From: a virus
Taxonomy: Duplodnaviria; Heunggongvirae; Uroviricota; Caudoviricetes
Direction: 5' to 3' (one strand)
Virus record (IMG/VR): IMGVR_UViG_2740892440_000005
Location: 1-40,270 of that record
DNA length: 40,270 nucleotides
The translations under genes were made by a program, and so were the position numbers. The notes under the pieces are model-generated. The model was not told where the DNA came from. It made no database searches and saw nothing but the letters and a program-made list of their open reading frames with translations. This document shows, piece after piece, positions 6,731-11,209 of the stretch; position 1 is the stretch's first letter; every line of letters starts with the position of its first letter.

Positions 6731-7699
6731 TTAGTAGGTTATTTTTGTTGCGAATACTTCGCCTTTTACGATGGCTGTTATGATATTTTTAGCAACATCT
6801 TCTGATGCGCCAACCTTGATAAGGTCAGCAAGTATTTTGTTATTTACTTCTTTCCGGTGAGCTTTATCCTTTGCTCTGCGCTCTTCTTCGTCCTTGATTC
6901 TTTTTTCTTCTGCTATTCTGGCTTGCTCTTTTGCTTCAGCCTCGCGACGGATTCGTTCAGCATCCTCCTGTGCTTTTCGGCGTTCTGCTTCAATTGCCGC
7001 CTGCTTTTCTCTTTCAGCTCGTTCTGCTGCCTCTTTTGCTTCGCGCTGTGCTCGTTGCTCGGCTTCAATGCGTTCACGCTCTGCACGTTCCGCTGCGGCC
7101 TTAGCTTCTGCTTCTCGCCTTGCTGCTGCTTCAATTTCGGCTTTTGCCTTTGCTTCGGCTTCAGCTCTGGCTTTCTCTTCAGCTTCTTTTTTTAAGCGTT
7201 CTTCATGCTCTCGCTTTTCCTGCTCCGCTTTGAGTCTTGCCTCTTCTCTTTGGCGGTCAAATTCGCGATCCATCAAAATCGCTATTTCATGGTCAGACTC
7301 AATTTGCTTTGCGAGAGCTTCAGCTGCTGCCTTAGCTTCTTCTTCGGCTTTAATCCGCGCCTGTTCTTCCTCATAATCAGTAAGAGGCTGGCGTGCCTTG
7401 GCTTTCAGCTCATCAAGGCGATCACGCACTGTCTTGCGGTTGGCATCAATTAGCTTTGGAATTTCCTTCAGTTCAGCAACAAGGTCTTTTCCAAGACCAT
7501 CGAGATATGTTTTCGTCTGCGCAACTTTATACGCCAGAGAAGCGATCTCCTTTCTGCCCTTTGCCGTTGTGATATCAGGCACAAAGGACATAACTTCACG
7601 TTCAACCTTTTGAAGGATTTCTTCAATCTGGTCGGCAGACTGAAATACAGTCATTGCATTTGCTTTTTCAATAACAACTAAATCTGTTACTTCACTCAT
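6731..7699 (-). CDS. DUF1351-like phage protein with long charged helical segment (322 aa)
   Basis: N-terminal domain resembles DUF1351 as I recall it; GGAGG RBS 4 nt upstream of ATG. Confidence 0.6.
   Translation of the reverse strand: MSEVTDLVVIEKANAMTVFQSADQIEEILQKVEREVMSFVPDITTAKGRKEIASLAYKVAQTKTYLDGLGKDLVAELKEIPKLIDANRKTVRDRLDELKAKARQPLTDYEEEQARIKAEEEAKAAAEALAKQIESDHEIAILMDREFDRQREEARLKAEQEKREHEERLKKEAEEKARAEAEAKAKAEIEAAARREAEAKAAAERAERERIEAEQRAQREAKEAAERAEREKQAAIEAERRKAQEDAERIRREAEAKEQARIAEEKRIKDEEERRAKDKAHRKEVNNKILADLIKVGASEDVAKNIITAIVKGEVFATKITY
6877..7282 (-). repeat. Low-complexity E/A/R/K-rich coding segment (about 135 aa)
   Basis: Translation is almost entirely E, A, R, K (AEAEAKAKAEIEAAARREAEAK...), typical of a single alpha-helix or coiled coil; also generates spurious antisense ORFs. 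Confidence 0.6.
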
Positions 7700-7915: not shown

Positions 7916-8542
7916 CTACCCGTAAAGCAGGAAGTGCTGCACTTGCTTTATCTGCTTCTTTTTGTAGTAACTCTTTGCTTTCAGGCCAAAATTCAATAAG
8001 TCGCTTATTGGTAGTAACTCTTTGCTTTCAGGCCAAACTTCAATAAGTCGCTTAACTGTTGTGACTGAGTTCAAAGCAGCCCATACATTTGATTCGATAT
8101 CCTTTTTCAAGGCATCAAGGTTTTGTTGCAATGCGCAGATTTCATCAAACCTTTTTGTTATTTCGTGTTCTGCGTCAAACATGCATTTATCTTTGGTTGG
8201 AGTAGGGAGCAATATATCTTCGCCGTTGCCGTCTTTCCCATATGAATGCCATCCAACCCTTCTGCCAGATACAGTCAGATAAATTGAAGTAGAACGAACA
8301 TCGTATGAGTAAAATGAACATCCCATCTTTCCAAGTTCTTCACTTATAGCTACCAACTTGGATGATAACTGATCCACTTCCTCAGTTTTCTTTTTACCGC
8401 CAAACGCAATAACTCTGGCGTCAAGTGCAAGCTGGTTCTTTAACTTTGTTACTTCTTCAAGTTCAGTGAAAACCCCAGACTTAATTAAAGCGTTACGAGC
8501 GATTTCCTCTTTCATTCTCGTAGTTAAGCGGATTGATGACAT
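7916..8542 (-). CDS. Hypothetical early-left protein (208 aa), 3' end altered by tandem duplication
   Basis: Start at MSSIRLTT with GAGG RBS; a 47-bp direct duplication lies inside the last about 30 codons. Confidence 0.5.
   Translation of the reverse strand: MSSIRLTTRMKEEIARNALIKSGVFTELEEVTKLKNQLALDARVIAFGGKKKTEEVDQLSSKLVAISEELGKMGCSFYSYDVRSTSIYLTVSGRRVGWHSYGKDGNGEDILLPTPTKDKCMFDAEHEITKRFDEICALQQNLDALKKDIESNVWAALNSVTTVKRLIEVWPESKELLPISDLLNFGLKAKSYYKKKQIKQVQHFLLYG
7961..8054. repeat. 47-bp tandem direct duplication (2 copies, 45/47 identical)
   Basis: Copies at 7961-8007 and 8008-8054 (core GTAGTAACTCTTTGCTTTCAGGCCAAA[A/C]TTCAATAAGTCGCTTA) read directly; 47 is not a multiple of 3. Confidence 0.85.
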
Positions 8543-8553
8543 ATTAATTCCTC

Positions 8554-8853
8554 TCAAATAAGTGGTTTGCTGCCTAATTTCATTTTCTGGCGACCAACAC
8601 AAGTCACACCCATTTCACTGCGTGGCTTGCGGTAGTAAATACGGTTCTGTTTACGCTCGACTTCTTCTGCCTTCTTGCAGCGAAGGCTTCCGAGTGATGC
8701 TGCTTTATCTGCTCTGACGCAACCAGAGAGCTTTAGCGCAATCTTTCGCGCCAGTCGCTGTTCTTGCATTGCCTGTTCACGTTGAGCCTGTCTGCGTGCT
8801 CTGCGGCGATTTCTGGCGTTATCGTCAGCCAGATATGTAATGACTACTGTCAT
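8554..8853 (-). CDS. N: N-type transcription antiterminator (99 aa)
   Basis: N-terminal arginine-rich motif NARNRRRARRQAQREQA; first gene downstream of pL/nutL; GGAGG RBS. Confidence 0.7.
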   Translation of the reverse strand: MTVVITYLADDNARNRRRARRQAQREQAMQEQRLARKIALKLSGCVRADKAASLGSLRCKKAEEVERKQNRIYYRKPRSEMGVTCVGRQKMKLGSKPLI

Positions 8854-8960
8854 GTTGACCTCCGATGATTGACTTTGGCGGTGACGCGCCGGGTGCTTAT
8901 CTTCCGGTTTCCGTCGTGCAGCTGCACTTCACGTCACCCCAAAGCCAACTACTCTTTGGT

Positions 8961-9001
8961 TCCCGCATTTCGGCGGGACAATCCCATCAATGTTAAAGAG
9001 C
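8961..9001 (-). promoter_or_regulatory. nutL (boxB hairpin 8961-8978, boxA-like 8993-9001)
   Basis: On the minus strand boxB reads TCCCGC-CGAAAT-GCGGGA, identical to the nutR boxB; boxA-like GCTCTTTA lies upstream. Confidence 0.6.
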
Positions 9002-9047
9002 CTGCCAATCTGTTCCGTTTGGCTACCAGCGTCCTGCTGATGGCTAA

Positions 9048-9089
9048 AGAATACTGTAGGTATTTTATTGTGTAAATACCCAAGGTATT
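9048..9089 (-). promoter_or_regulatory. pL promoter with OL operators
   Basis: Minus-strand -35 TTTACA and -10 TATTCT with 17-bp spacer; operators AATAC-N5-GTATT at 9050-9064 and 9075-9089; weaker third site at 9120-9134. Confidence 0.55.
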
Positions 9090-9221
9090 TATTTTTGGTG
9101 AAATAATGATAAGCAAATGAATACAAAGGATATTTATTTTTTTCGGTGTCTGCTTGTTCAGTGCTTTTTATGCGGGATATGTGAAGTGGATCCCGATAGC
9201 TATTGCTGCCGGGATTATAGG

Positions 9222-9590
9222 TTAGTCAGCGAAGGTTAAGACGAGAATTACCTTAATGATGTCTGCTACAACAGACACGGCCATAGATAAACCAAAGACG
9301 ATCCAAGCCACAGTGATGTCTTCACTACCATCGTATAGAGTTCCGTAATCACTGGTGTAAGGCGTAAATGTAGCGCCTTGATACAATAGGTATAAGCTTG
9401 ATCCATAGAGGATAAATGCAGATATCCCTTGTATTGCTATGACAACTAGAATCATGAAACGAGCTGATCTATGCGCCCAAGCCTGGCTTATTTTTTCTGA
9501 TAGAGATTTCGCAATAAAAGCATGCGCTAAGCCGTAAATTGTTGAGATTGACAACATCCCCAAAAAGCTTGCTATAGCGGTTCCAACCAT
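9222..9590 (-). CDS. Small polytopic membrane protein (122 aa) immediately downstream of cI
   Basis: Hydrophobic translation with several predicted TM segments; 18-nt gap from cI stop, same strand, so likely co-transcribed in the lysogen. Confidence 0.6.
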   Translation of the reverse strand: MVGTAIASFLGMLSISTIYGLAHAFIAKSLSEKISQAWAHRSARFMILVVIAIQGISAFILYGSSLYLLYQGATFTPYTSDYGTLYDGSEDITVAWIVFGLSMAVSVVADIIKVILVLTFAD

Positions 9591-9608
9591 AAGCGCCCCC
9601 TTGCGTGA

Positions 9609-10325
9609 TCAAACCAGTCTGAGTTTTGTCTCAATTGCAACGCCTATAATCTTGCAGTTTCCATTGATTGGCACGAGAGGCCATGCAGGATTAAGTCCCT
9701 TGAGGTATTTATTTCCGCCGTCGATTATCAGCTTCTTGAATGTTGCTTCGTTAGAGTCAGAAAGTTTTGCTATGACCAAGCTGCCGTTGATCGCCTCCCT
9801 TCCGGTATCGAAAAGAACGAATGTTCCCTCTGGAATGCTTAACCCAACCGGTGCCGTCATTGAATCACCTTCCACTTTAAGCCAAAACGCATTACCTTGA
9901 ATATGCGCGTCAGACTCAAGCCAAACATCTATGTCTTTAATGGTGTATGGTTCGCATGCTTCACACCACGAGCCAGCCTGGATACTGCTTAACACCGGAT
10001 ACCTCTTTCCTGCTCTGTATTCCCCTGCATACCTTACGTTGGCATCGCTCTTAAGGCTTTCTGCCTGTTCTGCAACCTTGGCAGCAATTGACTGGCTAAA
10101 ATCAGCAATTGAGACTTGCAACAATCGTGCAAAACCAGATGCAACCTCAACGTTTAGCGCGTTTCTGCCATTAAGATAATGCCCTACCGCTCCTTGGGTG
10201 ATACCCAGTTCATCAGCGATTGAGTATTGGGTTATTCCCAATTCTTTCTTTTTTGACTCATACAAAGCCTTAAGCCGCTTAGCGTCTTCGAGCTGTTCTG
10301 TCGTCAGTGATTTTTTATTTTCCAT
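9609..10325 (-). CDS. cI: CI-type prophage repressor (238 aa), HTH plus S24 autopeptidase domain
   Basis: N-terminus LTTEQLEDAKRLKALYESKKKELGITQ and C-terminal EGDSMTAP...TFKKLI are closely lambda-cI-like. Confidence 0.9.
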   Translation of the reverse strand: MENKKSLTTEQLEDAKRLKALYESKKKELGITQYSIADELGITQGAVGHYLNGRNALNVEVASGFARLLQVSIADFSQSIAAKVAEQAESLKSDANVRYAGEYRAGKRYPVLSSIQAGSWCEACEPYTIKDIDVWLESDAHIQGNAFWLKVEGDSMTAPVGLSIPEGTFVLFDTGREAINGSLVIAKLSDSNEATFKKLIIDGGNKYLKGLNPAWPLVPINGNCKIIGVAIETKLRLV

Positions 10326-10336
10326 AGCTTAATTCT

Positions 10337-10402
10337 AATAGCTAAGGTACTTAAACTAAAAATACCCTGAGTATTGATTGCTTTGAATACCTGTAGTATT
10401 CT
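10337..10402. promoter_or_regulatory. OR operators with overlapping pR (and presumably pRM)
   Basis: Three sites AATAC-N5-GTATT at 10337-10351 (imperfect), 10361-10375, 10386-10400, spaced 24-25 bp; pR -35 TTGATT (10374-10379) and -10 TATTCT (10397-10402). Confidence 0.6.
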
Positions 10403-10431
10403 TTGTTCATGGTTAATAACGGAGAGTGCAT

Positions 10432-10626
10432 ATGATTCGAATGACACTTGCCGATTACGCCAAAATCCATGGACAGGCTAAAGCAGCCAGTGACTTTGGT
10501 GTAATCCAGTGCGCTATCAGCAAGGCCATTCTGGCAGGCCGTAACATCATGGTTACGGTAAAGCCTGATGGCAGTGTGATTGGAGAGGAAGTTCGTCCTT
10601 TCCCAAGCAACAAGAAAAACAAATAG
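10432..10626 (+). CDS. cro: Cro repressor (64 aa)
   Basis: [15 protein letters not shown]...PFPSNKK closely parallels lambda Cro; GGAGAG RBS 5 nt upstream of ATG. Confidence 0.9.
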
Positions 10627-10632
10627 TAACAC

Positions 10633-10677
10633 CGCTCTTTAACAGTCATGGTCCTCATTCCCGCCGAAATGCGGGAA
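10633..10677 (+). promoter_or_regulatory. nutR (boxA CGCTCTTTA 10633-10641, boxB hairpin 10658-10677)
   Basis: boxA matches the consensus; boxB stem TTCCCGC/GCGGGAA with loop CGAAAT. Confidence 0.65.
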
Positions 10678-10734
10678 TACAACGCGCATAAGTTGATGCG
10701 CATAACTTCTTATTTGTTAAGGAAATACTTACAT

Positions 10735-11013
10735 ATGCAACTTACAAGTACTCGCAAGAAAGCGAATGCAATTACAAGCAACATCCTAAATCGAATTGCT
10801 GTACGTGGTCAGCGAAAGGTTGCCGACGCGTTAGGGATTAATGAATCGCAAATTTCGCGATGGAAAGACAGCTTCATCCCAAAAATGGGAATGCTTCTGG
10901 CTGTTCTTGAATGGGGTGTTGAAGACGAGGAGTTGGCGGAACTGGCTAAGAAAGTAGCCAGAATGCTGACAAAAGAAAAAGCCCCGAAAAACGGCGAATT
11001 CTTCGAGGCCTGA
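10735..11013 (+). CDS. cII: CII-type transcriptional activator (92 aa)
   Basis: ...ESQISRWKDSFIPKMGMLLAVLEWGV... closely matches lambda CII core; start chosen at ATG with AAGGA RBS. Confidence 0.8.
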   Translation: MQLTSTRKKANAITSNILNRIAVRGQRKVADALGINESQISRWKDSFIPKMGMLLAVLEWGVEDEELAELAKKVARMLTKEKAPKNGEFFEA

Positions 11014-11047
11014 TGTAGAAAGACTGGATCAATCCACAGGAGTAATT

Positions 11048-11209
11048 ATGACAAAACGTCGTAAGAAATACCAGGAAAAAGAAGAGATTCGACACCCTGA
11101 TTCACCTGAGGGATTAGTGGTAGCCGCAGCAAATAACAGGGCGTTCGCAGAGCGCCTTGTTGGTGTTTACAGACTAGCCAAAGCAGGAGTGAAACATGGG
11201 CGTCGTTAA
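11048..11209 (+). CDS. Small basic hypothetical protein (53 aa) between cII and the initiator gene
   Basis: Hand-translated (MTKRRKKYQEKEEIRHPDSPEG...); AGGAG RBS 5 nt upstream; overlaps the next gene start. Confidence 0.35.
   Translation: MTKRRKKYQEKEEIRHPDSPEGLVVAAANNRAFAERLVGVYRLAKAGVKHGRR

Follow-up and report, generated by a model that had tools for sequence, protein, structure and literature searches.

The HK620-type immunity region of a P22-like phage: two sets of operators at pL and pR, and the probable place of the third left operator

Introduction

The closest described counterpart of the locus considered here is the immunity region of coliphage HK620, the genome paper of which is reportedly that of Clark et al. 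2001 (J Mol Biol 311:657). The HK620 record (GenBank AF335538 / NC_002730) already annotates the operators OL1-3 and OR1-3, the promoters pL and pR, the terminator tIMM, nutL, nutR, pRE and the cII site, and it carries no annotation of pRM. A search of the literature for binding, footprinting, EMSA or transcript mapping of the HK620-type immunity group, including the operators of HK620 and mEpX2, found none in the searchable papers. Regarding the recognition of operators by Cro proteins, an 'evolutionary code' has been described (Hall, Lefevre and Cordes 2005; PMC6649833), in which Gln at H1 is paired with A at +2, Ala at H3 with A at +5 and Lys at H6 with C at +6. In lambda Cro, moreover, Ser at H2 makes contact with base pairs 4 and 5, and Asn with base pair 3 (PMC6649833).

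The window, that is, the whole stretch of 40,270 nucleotides that was analysed, had been given an initial annotation made from the letters alone, in which six operator-like AATAC-N5-GTATT sites around two promoters were taken to define the immunity specificity of the phage. Here, this region is compared with HK620, with phage lambda and with more distant relatives. The switch is already known and annotated, and the only new point is the probable place of its third left operator.

Results

Comparison with HK620

To begin with the closest records, positions 8500-11100 of the window were 98.3% identical to coliphage HK620 and similarly close to HK630, HK140, mEpX2, HF4s, HZ41, vB_EcoP-611R6, phi296, phi367 and two Stx2c phages. 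In particular, 441 nt comprising the start of cI, OR and cro were 100% identical to HK620, and the OL region was 96.9% identical, with every operator base unchanged. Furthermore, pL, pR, nutL, nutR, hkaS, N and cII were the same in both phages; the pL and pR ranges of the HK620 record mapped to window positions 9041-9076 and 10374-10409, and five of the six operators annotated in HK620 corresponded to sites of the initial annotation, extended to 17 bp. In contrast, outside this module, the window is a different P22-like mosaic, closest to IME10/HZ41 (virion and recombination genes), and the assignments of OL3 and tIMM in the HK620 record are at variance with the comparative data. The HK620-type immunity module was found in 146 of the 5,426 complete E. 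coli genomes.

As judged from these alignments, the window belongs to the immunity group of phage HK620. Comparison of the half-sites with the known lambdoid groups had been suggested from the start, and the repressor, Cro and operator sequences of the window turned out to be those of HK620. The immunity specificity sought at that time would thus be the HK620 one, which is presumably also carried by HK630, HK140, mEpX2, HF4s, HZ41 and some Stx2c phages.

As a separate observation, the record of Aeromonas phage AP1 (MT713136.1, 254 kb) ends with 149 nt (253511-253659) that are 100% identical to window positions 10492-10640, comprising the 3' end of cro and the boxA of nutR; an artefact of assembly or contamination in the AP1 record is the probable cause.

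Genes around the switch

The cI and cro genes are divergent and flank OR; N lies on their left and cII on their right, as follows:

8554-8853: N, left of OL
9222-9590, minus strand: hkaS (HK620 name), 122-aa hydrophobic membrane protein between cI and OL, in the position of rex
9609..10325, minus strand: cI repressor, 238 aa, with HTH_3 and Peptidase_S24
10432..10626, plus strand: cro, 64 aa, recognition helix QCAISK, Pfam Cro E 3.6e-26
10735-11013: cII, right of cro

The cI product was a full-length homologue of lambda cI (E 2.9e-52 against the lambda repressor 3bdn over residues 3-232), in which the parts involved in self-cleavage were present, with QAG, GDSMTAP and FKKL aligning with lambda Ala111-Gly112, Ser149 and Lys192, respectively. 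Cro, in turn, matched lambda Cro over residues 3-63 (E 4.7e-19). Since both proteins are homologous to those of lambda and the cleavage site and the Ser/Lys pair are in place, the locus is a true lambda-type switch and not a mere analogue.

The hkaS product matched no Pfam family above threshold, and in the relatives described below its place is either empty or holds up to about 3 kb of other genes. Both nutL (8955-9002) and nutR (10632-10680) have a boxA-like (G/C)GCTCTTTAACA and, after it, an identical boxB hairpin, TCCCGCCGAAATGCGGGA, in agreement with the HK620 annotation. Further to the left, an ORF of 322 aa on the minus strand (6731-7699) has a long, low-complexity central part rich in Glu, Ala, Lys and Arg.

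Promoters pL, pR and pRM

Three promoters were assigned in the region, the first of them by promoter scan and the other two from the sequence:

9041..9076, minus strand: pL, -35 TTTACA (9076..9071), 17-nt spacer, -10 TATTCT (9053..9048), predicted start A at 9041; the HK620 pL range
10374..10409, plus strand: pR, -35 TTGATT (10374-10379), 17-nt spacer, -10 TATTCT (10397-10402), predicted start A at 10409; the HK620 pR range
10337..10332 (element 10325..10337), minus strand: predicted pRM -10, TAGAAT, 6 nt upstream of the cI ATG (10325)

For pR, direct reading gave 8 of 12 hexamer matches, which is one below the cut-off of the promoter scan. At both pL and pR, O1 shares 4 bp with the -10, the first four bases of which (TATT) come from the outer half-site of O1, and O2 shares 2 bp with the -35, which begins in the last two bases of O2. 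Moreover, the initial transcribed sequence of pL, ATCAGCAGGACGC, is common to lambda pL, and the layout of pR parallels that of lambda pR. The shared TATTCT -10 and the overlap of the sites with the -35 and -10 elements, both proposed in the initial annotation, were therefore found as described, the overlap applying to O1 and O2 of each promoter, and the promoters that it named coincide with those of the HK620 GenBank record. Regarding pRM, a TA[G/C/A/T][A/T]AT element at the same distance from the cI ATG was present in most relatives, the exceptions being three prophage loci (L023, L024 and L038). As TAGAAT lies only 6 nt before the cI ATG, a leaderless cI mRNA is implied, as in lambda.

Operator-like sites

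On direct reading, all six strings of the initial annotation were present exactly where it had placed them. The exact motif AATAC-N5-GTATT occurred four times in the 40,270 bases (at 9050, 9075, 10361 and 10386), always at pL or pR, compared with 0.02 occurrences expected from dinucleotide-preserving shuffles of the window, on which the two further counts in the window are likewise based. Allowing one mismatch, five matches were obtained (0.87 expected), all of them within OL or OR, the fifth being 9120-9134. Allowing two mismatches, 20 matches were obtained against 14.9 expected, and since this class is near the shuffle level, OR3 is not significant by count alone. OR3 is backed by its position 24 bp from OR2 and by the presence there of a site with at most one mismatch in almost every relative.

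A position weight matrix was built from the relatives only (130 unique sites, with the window, HK620 and mEpX2 left out). With this matrix, the six sites took ranks 1-6 of 40,250 window positions (scores of 22.9, 22.5, 21.5, 20.3, 15.0 and 12.4, the seventh position scoring 5.2), although the matrix sites had been chosen with the same pattern, so that independent information comes only from outside the ten fixed bases. One independent position was thereby obtained, a pyrimidine after AATAC, giving the 17-bp consensus a-AATAC-Y-nnn-R-GTATT-t. The sites, none of which is assigned a strand, are the following:

9049..9065, no strand: OL1, 17-bp operator GAATACTGTAGGTATTT; core 9050-9064, AATACTGTAGGTATT, exact motif; overlaps the pL -10; matrix score 21.5; position of HK620 OL1
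9074..9090, no strand: OL2, 17-bp operator AAATACCCAAGGTATTT; core 9075-9089, AATACCCAAGGTATT, exact motif; overlaps the pL -35; matrix score 22.5; position of HK620 OL2
9119..9135, no strand: probable OL3, 17 bp, GAATACAAAGGATATTT; core 9120-9134, AATACAAAGGATATT, one mismatch; 45 bp from OL2; matrix score 15.0, rank 5 of 40,250
10336..10352, no strand: OR3, the weakest site, TAATAGCTAAGGTACTT; core 10337-10351, AATAGCTAAGGTACT, two mismatches; overlaps the pRM spacer and -10; matrix score 12.4, rank 6; position of HK620 OR3
10360..10376, no strand: OR2, 17 bp, AAATACCCTGAGTATTG; core 10361-10375, AATACCCTGAGTATT, exact motif; overlaps the pR -35 and borders the -35 region of pRM; matrix score 22.9; position of HK620 OR2
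10385..10401, no strand: OR1, 17 bp, GAATACCTGTAGTATTC; core 10386-10400, AATACCTGTAGTATT, exact motif; overlaps the pR -10; matrix score 20.3; position of HK620 OR1

The centre-to-centre spacing was 25 bp for OL1-OL2, 45 bp for OL2-OL3, 25 bp for OR1-OR2 and 24 bp for OR2-OR3. Overall, the six sites first proposed were confirmed by their exact positions, the four exact matches and the matrix ranks, while the accompanying spacing of about 25 bp held everywhere except for OL3.

Conservation in distant relatives

Low-stringency DNA searches retrieved three phages in which the cI-cro DNA was only 71-74% identical, namely Hafnia phage Pocitis76, Serratia phage vB_SspS_OS31 and Erwinia phage vB_EhrS_49. 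Furthermore, scanning genomes with the cI alignment gave 33 prophage loci (cI identity of 50-76%) in Lelliottia, Siccibacter, Enterobacter, Tatumella, Lonsdalea, Serratia, Pantoea, Providencia, Proteus, Yersinia, Pectobacterium, Morganella, Kluyvera, Photorhabdus and others (about 20 Enterobacterales genera). A total of 158 sites with at most one mismatch were present in 200 kb of these relatives, compared with 9.3 in shuffles, and nearly all of them fell in two clusters. One, immediately upstream of cI, comprised three sites spaced by 24-25 bp; the other, at pL, comprised two sites separated by 25 bp and, in most cases, another close by. The sequence and the positions of the half-sites were kept, whereas the spacers, central bases and flanks had diverged.

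Both the three phages and the prophages agreed with the window in the half-site, in the OR1-OR2-OR3 layout and in the recognition helix of cI, this helix (QGAVGHYLNGRN) being nearly invariant while the C-terminal half of cI diverges. Their Cro helix was IQCAISKAI or HQTAISKA(I/V/L). On the other hand, they differed from the window in the overall identity of cI, given above, and in the third left site, found at +21, +29/30 or +45 from OL2 or absent. OR3 was usually one mismatch off the motif in the relatives, and since it is imperfect there too, a weak OR3 is a conserved family trait. Taken together, homologues of lambda cI and Cro flanking OR and sites that appear to be conserved as operators in the relatives support the early reading of this stretch as an immunity region.

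A different Cro helix, TQ(M/I)AISKAL, was found in six of the loci (L018, L021-L024 and L033, with OR at about 2390-2500), in which OR1 was of the AATAC or ACTAC type and OR2 and OR3 were altered, with variants such as GCTACTACAAGTAGG and CAAACTAAAGGTATT. These loci may represent a sub-specificity. One of them, L033 (CACSKA010000001.1), lies on a contig labelled Chryseobacterium sp. and has an enterobacterial-type cI locus, 62% identical, so that its label or assembly is suspect.

Half-sites and recognition helices

For the Cro of the window (Q-C-A-I-S-K), the code predicts A2, A5 and C6, and the 17-bp register x-A-A-T-A-C gives all three. Compared with the lambda half-site TATCAC, that of the window (aAATAC) differs at positions 1, 3 and 4. 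As for the proteins, lambda Ser28 (H2) and Asn31 are replaced in Cro by Cys and Ser, respectively, while Gln44 and Asn55 of lambda cI are kept and Ser45 is replaced by Gly; in the lambda repressor, we take Gln44, Asn55 and Ser45 to be the residues that read half-site positions 2, 6 and 4. From these alignments, the changes in the half-site would go with changes in the residues reading that part (cI Ser45; Cro Ser28 and Asn31), and the residues reading positions 2, 5 and 6 appear to be kept. The altered sites of the TQ(M/I)AISKAL loci, where protein and site seem to change together, are a small further sign.

The third left operator

In the HK620 record, the third left operator is placed closer to OL2 than in the initial annotation:

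9096..9112, no strand: place of OL3 annotated in HK620, TGGTGAAATAATGATAA; 22 bp from OL2; unsupported as an operator

Variable positions of the third left site were observed in the relatives. It was found at +21 from OL2 in L005, L010, L014-L017 and L025; at +29 or +30 in L007, L008 and L035, with the Hafnia phage (L003) at +29; and at +45 in eight loci, several of which are related by descent (the window, L004, L011, L012, L013, L031, L032 and L036). Counting matches of up to one mismatch, no locus examined combined two of these offsets, and a third left site was missing from some relatives (L006 and L037).

An A/T block, GGATATTTATTTTTTT, was also observed at 9129-9144, about 88-103 bp upstream of the predicted pL start, overlapping the right half of 9120-9134. 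The distance of the block from pL was the same in all relatives and in lambda, where it reads ATGAATTTATTTTTTGC and lies to the right of OL3. By itself, the block gives a match to four of the five half-site bases. It may be the counterpart, by analogy, of the 'distant UP element' of lambda pL, reportedly described by Giladi et al. in 1998.

Alternative readings

Intergenic DNA is A/T-rich here and the two-mismatch class is at background level, as would be expected if the palindromes were chance or compositional features that bind no regulator. However, four exact matches against 0.02 expected, the excess of sites in relatives (158 vs. 9.3), confined to pL and pR, and the fit of the half-sites to the Cro code are opposed to this, and the shuffle statistics together with the conservation effectively refute it. 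A more specific question concerns the third left operator, which, following the HK620 record, would lie at about 9096-9112, leaving 9120-9134 either as the stem of tIMM, ending the cI-hkaS transcript, or as an A/T-rich upstream element of pL. Besides the annotation itself, this placement is favoured by its 22 bp from OL2, close to the 20 bp of lambda, by the seven relatives with a site at +21, and by the overlap of 9120-9134 with an A/T element conserved regardless of operator position, lambda included. Nevertheless, 9096-9112 matches only three of the ten defining bases (matrix score of -31, rank 11,681 of 40,250), and when scored in three registers with the relatives-only matrix, every register was far below background matches. 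Few positions of the region vary among imm-HK620 phages; two of these lie within 9096-9112, and the ten defining bases of 9120-9134 are invariant among these phages. As regards tIMM, which the HK620 record places at 9109-9139 (minus strand), covering the +45 stretch, the terminator scan gave no match to it; its hairpin, as read on the cI strand, consists of A-U pairs only, with a minimum free energy of -0.6 kcal/mol, which does not surpass that of shuffles (z of +0.9), and no U-run after the stem. Scanning for terminators and folding of both strands thus gave no support for 9120-9134 as a terminator stem. In addition, the relatives have a site of up to one mismatch at +21, +29/30 or +45 and never at two of them, those at +45 in L031 and L032 being perfect. 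The HK620 placement and the accompanying explanations of 9120-9134 are accordingly rated from very unlikely to, at best, doubtful.

It could also be that OL has only two functional operators, 9120-9134 being a by-product of the A/T element and a chance AATAC, as that conserved element supplies most of the right half of the site, two relatives (L006 and L037) have no third site, and phage 933W is said to have only two OL sites. Against this, 9120-9134 is the only one-mismatch site in 40 kb beyond the four perfect ones, and the same +45 offset recurs in eight loci, with a perfect site in two of them; this possibility is considered improbable.

The third left operator is therefore placed, with some preference, at 9120-9134, where the initial annotation put it: one mismatch, rank 5 and the recurrence at +45 speak for this placement, which on comparative grounds appears better than that of the HK620 record, whereas the disagreement with that record and the 45-bp spacing speak against it. 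More generally, OL3 would be a movable part in this repressor family (21, 29-30 or 45 bp from OL2), which in the HK620 group lies at +45, over the A/T element conserved in lambda, and not at the annotated place, a proposal to which we give slightly better than even odds.

Discussion

Overall, with a probability of roughly 0.9, the region is read as the switch between lysis and lysogeny of an E. coli phage or prophage that is P22-like and has the HK620 immunity module, with two sets of three 17-bp palindromic operators on pL and pR. By analogy with lambda, in the lysogen, cI dimers on O1 and O2 of pL and pR would occlude the -10 and -35 hexamers that these sites overlap, and cI at OR2, abutting the weak -35 of pRM, would activate the leaderless transcription of cI. 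OR3 extends over the spacer of pRM and into the first base of the -10; when occupied, whether by excess cI or, early in lytic growth, by Cro, it would turn pRM off. RecA-stimulated self-cleavage of cI at Ala117-Gly118 would lift the repression. This account of binding and its order, of cooperativity, of pRM activation and of looping is drawn by inference from lambda.

The likeness to lambda extends from the proteins, cI and Cro being homologous along their full length, to the layout of the sites. The divergent cI (HTH and S24) and cro flank an OR with three palindromes over pR and pRM, and cI has the Ala-Gly site and the Ser/Lys dyad. As in lambda, the operators are 17 bp long with a central base pair, three of them at OR and probably three at OL, and the -10 is covered by O1 and the -35 by O2; OR3 falls over pRM, the transcript of which would begin with the cI ATG, and the start sequence of pL and its upstream A/T element are conserved. 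In contrast, the half-site is aAATACY instead of TATCACC, and the recognition helices differ both in cI (QGAVGHYLNGRN vs. QSGVGALFNGIN in lambda) and in Cro (QCAISK vs. QSAINK). Moreover, the operator spacings are 25/24 bp, compared with 24/23 in lambda, the OL2-OL3 distance is 45 bp instead of 20, and rexAB is replaced by the small membrane protein hkaS. At OL, only OL1 and OL2 are clear over pL, the probable third site, 45 bp away, being at odds with the HK620 annotation.

The significance of these results beyond annotation is small. The assignment to the HK620 group tells which lysogens should be immune to the phage of the window, and the operators of the group could be recovered from sequence alone. 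Furthermore, the correction of OL3 and the doubt cast on tIMM would improve a reference annotation that has been copied by many records. The comparison of loci shows that the predicted placement of OL3 varies within one specificity family, and the about 35 related switches, with conserved half-sites and a variable OL3 geometry, could serve studies of repressor specificity or long-range looping. If OL3 helps to fill OR3 via an OL-OR loop, as in lambda, the family would be a natural series for examining how far such a loop tolerates changes in operator geometry.
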